Assembly (NCBI RefSeq): GCF_056712565.1
Contig: NZ_CM160072.1
Reading direction: 5' to 3' (one strand)
Length of the DNA: 64,000 bases
In this document: positions 1-3,000 of the stretch, piece after piece
How positions within the stretch are numbered: the first letter of the stretch is position 1
Layout of the letters: each line of letters begins with the position of its first letter
Program-made: the position numbers

Positions 1-3000
1 CTTTGTACTGCCTTCTGAATAACAGGTAACAGTGGATCACTGATTTCTATCGGATTTCCCTGTTCATCAACACCACCGACATAACGCATCCAACCCGCGA
101 CGCCCAGCGCCAGCAGATCGAACTTGCTGTCATGCGCCAGATGCCAGCGAACAGAATCCAACATCCGCTGTGGCAATTTCTGGCTGCCATCCATCGCAAT
201 CTGCCAGGTTCGATGACGTAACGCCGGGTTGCTATAGCGTTCAATTAATCGGTTAGCGTAATCTTGCAAATCAACGCCCTGCACTTTCAGCGTCGGCGCT
301 TGTTCCTGCAACATTAAGGTATACGCCGCATGACGATAATGTTCATCCTCCATGCAGTCATTAATGTGCTGATATCCGGCAAGATAGCCCAGATACGCTA
401 GGAATGAATGACTGCCGTTAAGCATACGCAGTTTCATTTCTTCATAAGGCAGCACATCGCTAACCAGTTCAGCTCCCGCTTTTTCCCATTCCGGACGTCC
501 GGCAACAAAGTTATCTTCTATTACCCACTGGCGGAAAGGTTCACAGGCAACGCCTGCCGCATCGCGCACACCGGTAAGTTGTTCGATTTTCGCCAGCGTA
601 TCCTCTGTCACTGCGGGCACAATACGGTCCACCATTGTTGATGGGAAAGTCACGTTATCTTCGATCCATTGTGCCAGTTTTACATCAATGGCTTGCGCAT
701 AGGAAGTGACAACGTCACGCATAACATGACCGTTTTCTGGCATGTTGTCACATGACATGACGGTAAATGCGGGAAGTCCTGCCGCTTTACGGCGAGCCAG
801 CGCCTCAACAATCACCCCTGTTGCAGTTTTCGGCTGGTGGGGATTTTGCACGTCGGCAACGACCATCGGGTGATCAAGCATTAACTGTCCGGTCGCCGGA
901 GAGTGGAAATACCCTTTTTCGGTGATTGTCAGAGAGACAATCGCGATTTGCGGTTCACACATCGCAGCCAACACGGTTTCTAAGCCATCTATTTGTACGT
1001 GCAAGGCTTTTTTAACGACGCCAACGACGCGAGCCGTCCACGCATCAGCCGACATTTCCGCAACGGTATAAAGATTATCTTGCTGTTGTAAATCGGCAAT
1101 TTGCTGTTCGCCGCCGATTAAGTTGACCTCATAATATCCCCAGTCACTGAAATGTTCCGTAGCAAGAATATCGGCATACACGCCCTGATGCGCACGGTGA
1201 AATGCACCAAAGCCTAAATGAACAATTCTTGGGGCCAGGTTATTACGATCATAAACAGGGAGCGTCGCTTTTGCTGATAACAAATGATTTCCCATAACAA
1301 TTCCTTAAAATTAAATATAGCAAGCTACATGTTTTGTTATATGAATAAAAATCCCCTCTCCGGTAAGAGAAGAGATTGAGGATTTACAGACTTCTGGACG
1401 GTTGCGCAGCTCTTACAACATGTGGTTGATCTTCTGCGGCGTCTTCCAGCGCACTTAAATCACGGTCTTTCACTTCTGGCATTTTCAGCGCAGAGATTAA
1501 ACCAATCACAGAATATGCCATGATCATAATGGCGATCGGATACCAGGATTCCGTCATGGTGCAGAAAATCCCCGCCAGGATAGGACCAAAACCGGAAGCG
1601 ATAAGACCACCAATTTCTTTAGAAATAGCCATTCGGGTAAAGCGGTTAGTCCATAAATTCAAGCGCAGTGCCCAACCATCCCGATACTGCTGCTTTCACC
1701 AAATCCTTAGTACTTCTTTCGTGTTTTTCTATTGTCATAATGGTTATCTCTAAAAAAGAGGTAAGATGCGTGCTACTTACTCGCCGTTATTGGTATTATT
1801 CAGAAAAAGTGAGTAAGACTTTGCAGCAATGTTTTTGATCCTGTTCAAATAAACTAATGGCATCCGCAACATGCTGGAAATCAAATGTATGGGTAATTAG
1901 TTTTTCTGGTTTAATTAACCCTTTACTTAACCAGTCGATAACGACCGGGAATTTATTTGCATTTAAGCGTGAAGAGAAAATAGAGAGTTCTTTTCCGGTA
2001 ATTCCTTGCTGAATCACTTCAGACGGTTCACTGGAGAAGCCCATCAATACAATACGTGCCGCTGGAGAAGCCAGCGTTACGGCCTCTTTCAAGATTGAAG
2101 GATGACAAGCGGCATCGATAATTAAAGTCGGCTTGATGCCTTTTTCAGCGAAACTCTCGCCAAGCGGTGTCTGGCTGTTATTAATCGCCCAGTCTGCCCC
2201 GCTCTCTTTCGCTTTTTCCAGTCGTTCATCAATGCGATCGGCAACAATCACATTTTTAACGTTATAGACGCCTTTTAATACCTGAACGATCGTCAGGCCG
2301 ATTGGGCCGGCACCGTAAACCAGAACGGTATCATTTTCAGTCGGTTGACCATGACCGGTAACGTTAGCCGCAATGGTAAAAGGTTCGATCATCACCGCAT
2401 ATTGATCGGCCACAGCTTCAGGAATTTTCCACGCATTTTTTGCCGGAACCACGGCATATTCACTGAAACCACCGTCAGCGTGCACACCTAATACAGCAAG
2501 TGTCGTACAAACGTTCGGCTTACCTATAGAGCACGGATAGCAATGCCCACAGCTGACCACCGGATCGACAGCAACGCGTTCACCGACTCTGGCGCTTTCC
2601 ACGCCGTCACCCACTGCATCAATGACGCCAAAGAATTCATGACCAATGACGCGCGGATATTTCGCAAAAGGATTATGCCCACGGTAAATATGGCTATCTG
2701 AACCACAAATTCCGGCAAGTTTCACTTTTACTCGTACTTCACCCGCTGACGGGGTGGGTATTTCACGTTCGATAATCGACAGTTGATTCGGTTTTTCAAT
2801 TAAAATGCTTTTCATTACCTTACTCCTTACCAGTTCCACAGCGTGCCATCTTCCAGACGTGCGACTGGCAGATAAGCAGGTTCATAGGGATATTTCGCCG
2901 CCAGCTTTTCATCGAATTCGATGCCAAGGCCCGGTTTTTCTCCCGGATGCATATAGCCGTTATCGAAAGTCCAGTTGTGCGGGAAGACTTCGAGCATTTG

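Follow-up and report, generated by a model that had tools for sequence, protein, structure and literature searches.

The 64,000-nucleotide stretch of Escherichia coli DNA analysed here (the window; RefSeq assembly GCF_056712565.1, contig NZ_CM160072.1) carries, between ydfI and rspB, a ydfJ gene that has lost 1,013 bp. One end of the missing segment lies inside the core of the attachment (att) site used by Qin-type prophages. In all likelihood, this is a natural deletion that arose by illegitimate recombination on a phage-free chromosome, in an ancestor of the ExPEC/APEC strains of the ST95 complex (phylogroup B2), and that has been inherited clonally. The scar is an ordinary lineage-specific pseudogene that is already annotated; what is new is only the detail of its breakpoints and the continued use of the att site that was left behind.

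Anatomy of the ydfJ remnant

Reading of the sequence together with the ORF listing places the remnant on the minus strand at 1384–1738, which makes exact the ~355 bp given in the original prediction, and divides it into a 3′ piece, a junction, and an out-of-frame 5′ piece. The 3′ piece (1384–1647, minus strand, 264 nt) comprises codons 369–455 and the stop codon and is identical to residues 369–455 of the 455-amino-acid YdfJ of strain D8. RefSeq/PGAP already annotates 1384–1647 in carriers of the scar as an incomplete YdfJ pseudogene whose N-terminus is missing. The 5′ stub (1646–1738, minus strand) retains the start codon and its own upstream region; by the ORF listing and the D8 comparison, it encodes YdfJ residues 1–30 in another frame, as the peptide MTIEKHERSTKDLVKAAVSGWLGTALEFMD, and then ends at a TAA. 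The gene had been predicted to survive as its first ~30 codons and a C-terminal segment of ~90 codons in different frames, and translation against D8 YdfJ bears this out. With its start codon and upstream region, the stub resembles the annotated 36-amino-acid small protein YnfP of K-12, and by analogy with YnfP it could be translatable as a small peptide.

The neighboring genes are those that had been named, and they are untouched. The 5′ part of ydfI (mannitol dehydrogenase family) occupies 1–1295 on the minus strand and runs off the start of the window, with its start codon ending at 1295 according to the RefSeq annotation of identical loci; the YdfI protein (WP_000526706.1) is the same in D8 and CFT073, both of which have an intact ydfJ. 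The upstream neighbor rspB is intact at 1796–2815 on the minus strand (ORF listing and annotation), and its product, WP_000836075.1, is identical in D8. Reading of window positions 1–3600 and their ORFs gives rspA as a fourth feature, also on the minus strand. Indeed, the RspA, RspB, and YdfI proteins are all the same as in relatives that have an intact ydfJ. The 88-bp spacer between ydfJ and ydfI (1296–1383) is unchanged, with one mismatch to D8 and CFT073 at position 1373, and the 57-bp region between rspB and ydfJ (1739–1795) is likewise intact, with one mismatch to D8 at position 1772.

Intact D8 YdfJ scores 462.9 bits against the TIGR00883 profile (about 400 positions, 12 helices), for which the cutoff is 443.45. 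The 87-residue remnant scores 33.9 bits and matches profile positions 352–400 only, and the 30-residue stub gives no match to this profile. Since the remnant lies far below the family cutoff and covers only the last 49 profile positions, the YdfJ transporter has been lost, and the locus is a pseudogene rather than a functional member of the family.

A 1,013-bp deletion joined without homology

Alignment by BLAST with the intact loci of R2, CRE389, D8, and CFT073 resolves this region into two collinear blocks, window 1201–1647 and 1648–1900. With D8 and CFT073 as the reference, exactly 1,013 bp are absent between the blocks (949–1961 of the D8 locus, L008). These two B2 strains are the closest relatives with an intact gene, and each flank shows a single SNP between them and the window. 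The length of the deletion is not divisible by 3, so the reading frame is shifted; the TAA of the stub spans the junction, with TT supplied by the left flank and A by the right.

The junction lies at 1647/1648 and reads ...AAAGCGGTT|AGTCCATAA..., or, in its full extent, ...AAAGCGGTT|AGTCCATAAATTC..., without filler. Its position is unambiguous, because the reference runs on into TTTACAG beyond the left block and has CTGGA just before the right block. Neither microhomology nor a direct repeat is present at the breakpoints, which share 0 bp (GCGGTT|TTTAC vs. CTGGA|AGTCC), and no hairpins bridging them were seen on inspection. In comparisons with R2 and K-12-type alleles, the junction appears to contain a 2-nt AG filler. 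We dropped this reading, since the closest relatives, D8 and CFT073, read CTGGAAGTCCATAA on the right side of the junction; they carry GAAG in the core, and the AG at 1648–1649 is therefore templated. The alignment proposed with the original prediction, against the MG1655/Qin junctions and intact ydfJ, thus maps the breakpoint to a single position, with no microhomology and no engineered scar.

Other partial ydfJ alleles have unrelated breakpoints and are uninformative about the 1,013-bp deletion. ET729 has an IS5-associated truncation of ydfJ next to a Qin remnant, and MB06101 has lost the 5′ end of ydfI and most of ydfJ, also next to a Qin remnant; both are independent lesions. Two further independent lesions are an IS1 inside ydfJ in BUCT2930 and an IS1 in the ydfJ–rspB stretch of KE51, where the annotated features include split rspB-like names.

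The right breakpoint lies in the Qin attachment core

The ydfJ gene of K-12 MG1655 is interrupted by the cryptic prophage Qin, which leaves the ynfP stub (PMC6379469). The interruption had been part of the original prediction, and we find it in MG1655 at 93 nt from the ATG, with 427 codons on the side of ydfI and the stub (ynfP) on the side of rspB. Comparison of the two MG1655 Qin junctions with intact ydfJ yields an 11-bp common core, GAAATCCATAA, for which the B2 strains D8 and CFT073 have the synonymous variant GAAGTCCATAA. The right breakpoint of the scar falls between core positions 2 and 3 (GA|AGTCCATAA), so that 9 of the 11 core bases, in the B2 allele, remain at 1648–1656 together with all of the sequence to their right. 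The proposed link to the Qin position of K-12 thus proves more exact than had been stated, as the breakpoint lies inside the att core itself. In a gene of 1,368 bp, a random breakpoint would fall in the core with a chance of ~0.9%, or ~1.7% if either of the two breakpoints is considered.

The claim that the locus holds no prophage, integrase, or att-like repeat stands in its first parts. No phage genes (int, xis, or others) lie between the ydfJ fragments, and no bases lie between the two blocks. The complete core, searched as GAARTCCATAA, has 0 matches in the window, and there is no duplicated att core. However, the single partial core of 9 bp at 1648–1656 does remain.

The right junctions of prophages at this site read CTTGAAA-TCCATAA-ATTCAAG, a dyad in which a 7-bp segment is flanked by an inverted repeat. 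This is the layout that would be expected for a lambda-type core. In two lysogens, ATCC 25922 and GN05064, the base that varies between G and A at core position 4 goes with the left arm, and the crossover is accordingly placed to the right of this base, within TCCATAA. We therefore take TCCATAA (1650–1656) as the probable 7-bp crossover, or overlap, segment. From the dyad, ATTCAAG (1657–1663) is its right inverted-repeat arm, a putative integrase core-binding site that is intact in the scar. The right breakpoint would then cut into the left arm of the att site, to which integrase would also bind: this arm reads CGGTTAG in the scar vs. CTGGAAG in the intact site, while TCCATAA and the right arm are unaltered.

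The ydfJ site is heavily occupied. A Qin-type int adjoins the ydfJ stub in 2,714 of 5,426 complete genomes, and ydfI, ydfJ, and rspB are contiguous in only 2,012. An uninterrupted ydfJ is thus the minority state among sequenced E. coli. In EHEC, ydfJ is a prophage hotspot at which prophages cluster (PMC8112680).

It is useful to set the scar beside its known counterparts. With the ydfJ′/ynfP arrangement of K-12 it shares the gene, the position between ydfI and rspB, the att core, and a stub of ~30 codons beside rspB; K-12 has a 20.5-kb prophage and 427 codons on the ydfI side, whereas the scar has no prophage, has lost 1,013 bp, and has 87 codons there. Relative to the intact TIGR00883 member of D8 and CFT073, the retained parts and flanks are identical, bar the one SNP on each side, and the att allele is the same (GAAGTCCATAA); the scar differs in the absence of codons 31–368 and in its shifted frame. 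Of the att site used by PPydfJ of EHEC/EPEC and by Qin-like phages, the scar keeps the crossover segment and the right arm, but the window is without a prophage and has unrelated ydfJ sequence in place of the left core arm of attB.

Distribution and natural origin

In 123 of the 5,426 complete E. coli genomes, at least 80% of a 901-nt query spanning the locus is matched, with 99.9%–100% identity in all 40 matches listed. A junction-specific 37-mer (window 1620–1656) is present in 124 of these 5,426 genomes. The named carriers are UTI89, S88, IHE3034, NU14, UM146, PMV-1, APEC O1/O2:K1:H7, IMT5155, and the type strain ATCC 11775, which we take to be members of the ST95 complex of phylogroup B2. 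The window and ATCC 11775 are 99.98% identical over 50 kb, where they differ by three single-base indels and six SNPs. At 14088–14097, the window has a T9 homopolymer vs. T8 in ATCC 11775, which is either real variation or a sequencing artefact. Identical junctions in these strains suggest clonal inheritance from a single deletion in an ancestor of the ST95 complex.

The flanks of the scar are 99.98%–100% identical to natural ST95-type isolates but only 96.7%–98.1% identical to MG1655. No FRT or loxP site was found in the window, with up to three mismatches allowed, which confirms by pattern search what had been noted by eye, and no foreign bases are inserted at the junction. Because ~124 natural isolates share the identical junction, the flanks are of B2/ST95 type, and neither FRT, loxP, nor inserted bases are present, the scar is, on comparative evidence, natural, not engineered, and not derived from K-12. 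An engineered Qin deletion in a K-12 derivative (a reduced-genome or prophage-cured strain) has a superficial likeness to a Qin-less K-12 in its favor and nothing more, and with these flanks and this clean junction its probability is negligible; the engineered version of the proposed removal of a prophage with most of ydfJ is thereby refuted. The literature that we searched made no mention of ydfJ together with ST95; the papers on Qin and ydfJ cover the interruption in K-12 and the prophage clusters of EHEC.

Host and phage alleles at occupied sites

ATCC 25922, a B2 strain whose host allele is that of the scar lineage, holds a complete 45.4-kb Qin-like phage at the ydfJ site. This prophage (NZ_CP009072.1, 3477971–3523360) is lambdoid, with intact int, xis, terminase, head, and tail genes, and it carries the Qin cargo genes dicB, hokD, cspB/I, and ydfK; it is apparently a relative of the cryptic K-12 Qin that has stayed intact. 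At its junction with the ydfJ 3′ part, GAAGTCCATAA is followed by the phage arm, and at the int side the phage arm is followed by GAAATCCATAA and then host sequence. In every lysogen that we found, the int-side junction carries the phage A, whereas the scar has the host G. An artificial query for a G-type int-side junction gave no perfect full-length match in complete genomes, and the best matches had the one expected mismatch.

A Qin-like prophage with a frameshifted integrase lies at ydfJ in NZ_CP031215.1, an ST80 strain with RspA and RspB as in ST95. Its stub has the K-12-type allele CCCAGCC vs. CCCAACC in D8, CFT073, and ST95, which hints that flanking DNA may have been exchanged together with the prophage.

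Reuse of the damaged site

Scars joined to a Qin-type phage arm were sought among the complete genomes, and there was no example at any scar. The same search nonetheless brought up two of the ~124 carriers as occupied, GN05064 and GN04979, the former by a different phage. The prophage was examined in detail in GN05064, a bloodstream isolate from Durham, USA; GN04979, a neighboring accession, is known from a 64-nt junction match that is the same as that of GN05064. In GN05064, the scar carries a complete 45.2-kb prophage exactly at the residual half-att (NZ_CP147555.1, 2446226–2491340; junction at 2980–3220 of locus L015). The left junction reads ...GCGGTTAG-TCCATAA-TTTAAAGG..., and the right ...CTTGAAA-TCCATAA-ATTCAAG.... 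The left junction retains the host AG, and the right junction has the phage AA. Lambda-like early genes and a contractile tail are present in this phage; its integrase, of the Qin family, has 77.6% amino-acid identity with the Qin-type enzyme of ATCC 25922.

Most simply, the occupancy of GN05064 would reflect a later integration into the damaged site. If so, the crossover segment and the right arm appear to be enough for phage integration in vivo, despite the altered left arm.

Discussion

The reading that best fits these results is that of a deletion inside ydfJ in the ancestry of a lineage free of Qin, which the original prediction had offered as one of two possibilities. The ST95 complex would have inherited, by clonal descent, a single 1,013-bp deletion from one of its ancestors. 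The ends of this deletion were joined without homology, by illegitimate recombination, and most likely on a chromosome that had no prophage in ydfJ. The event removed codons 31–368 and shifted the frame, leaving a translatable N-terminal peptide of 30 residues and an 87-codon tail that would go untranslated. What survives of the att site, its 7-bp crossover segment and right arm, is a half-site that a phage can still use. The host-type G of the att core, which the scar has kept, favors a deletion on the phage-free allele, although a lysogenic history in two steps, considered below, yields the same final sequence. Pure chance, in the form of ordinary illegitimate recombination that happened to meet the core, is one explanation of where the deletion ends. 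A core breakpoint is expected by chance at only the low rates given above, however, and a phage-related trigger is plausible.

Such a trigger could be the integrase itself. A tyrosine integrase of the Qin family, brought by an infecting phage or already resident, may have promoted the deletion in an aberrant reaction that joined att to a non-att site 1,013 bp away. This proposal addresses no more than what caused the deletion and otherwise agrees with the preferred account. In its favor, the right breakpoint lies in an 11-bp core that chance would reach in only ~1%–2% of cases, the ydfJ att site is among the busiest in E. coli (to judge from the 2,714 genomes with int and 2,012 with a contiguous locus, out of 5,426), and close B2 relatives hold complete phages at ydfJ. 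In addition, the TTTACAG just inside the left breakpoint resembles the phage arms TTCACAG and TTTAAAG that come after the crossover segment, a likeness that is only weakly significant, at an estimated ~0.1, once the many comparable offsets are taken into account. Against it, the inferred segment TCCATAA starts 2 nt to the right of the junction, so that the junction is not at a cleavage position, and the product holds pseudo-site sequence together with the AG of attB, which is not a canonical recombinant. The left breakpoint shows no convincing core-like sequence, and the event was single, without recurrence. A canonical integrase exchange is in fact excluded, since the inferred overlap begins 2 nt away from the junction and sequence of both partners lies on one side. 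An integrase-promoted deletion is thus possible, if on balance doubtful.

There is a classical parallel in lambda, for which deletions with one end at att and imprecise excision are well known. Those deletions resemble the scar in having one end at the att core and the other at a nonhomologous site. The scar differs in that its endpoint misses the inferred overlap by 2 nt and in that it probably did not arise in a lysogen. A fuller form of the integrase proposal would take the deletion as the footprint of a failed or aberrant Qin-family integrase reaction at attB, after which the surviving half-site was enough for later integration. We offer this tentatively and consider it unlikely. If it were true, the ydfJ hotspot would be both eroded and reused by integrases, which could do without the left arm of attB in vivo.

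The history in two steps begins with the prophage. An ST95 ancestor would have been lysogenic, would have lost 1,013 bp at the left end of the prophage, and would later have undergone precise excision in almost all of its descendants. This sequence of events yields exactly the observed scar and explains an endpoint at the boundary between phage and host, and GN05064 and GN04979 show the intermediate that it predicts, the left junction of the scar with a prophage. Yet only those two of the ~124 carriers are occupied, and the phage of GN05064 is complete and apparently recent, so that later integration fits better. Excision would also have been required at a site whose left core arm had already been replaced. 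We consider this order of events improbable.

The other possibility in the original prediction was a deletion that removed a prophage together with most of ydfJ. Its engineered form was refuted above, and its natural form, a single deletion of a Qin-like prophage and 1,013 bp of ydfJ, is disfavored. Roughly half of E. coli genomes do have a prophage at the ydfJ site, and the right end of the deletion coincides with the int-side boundary of such a prophage. But that junction is GAAATCCATAA in every lysogen found, with no G-type junction in the collection. A one-step deletion through the prophage would hence leave AATCCATAA, not the observed AGTCCATAA with its host G, and we regard such an event as very improbable.

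The deletion in ydfJ has several consequences. First, it leaves the ST95 lineage, which is of clinical importance, without YdfJ, the 12-helix MHS-family metabolite/H+ symporter of the rspAB–ydfJI sugar-acid cluster. At the same time, the ydfI side stays joined to the upstream region, unlike in K-12, where a prophage lies between them. Second, the 1,013-bp difference in the size of the ydfI–rspB interval could serve to recognize the ST95 complex in a simple way, by PCR or from sequence. Finally, the wider relevance of the scar is modest and lies in the finding of a deletion end inside a heavily used att site of E. coli. The use of this damaged site by a phage bears on how much of attB an integrase needs.
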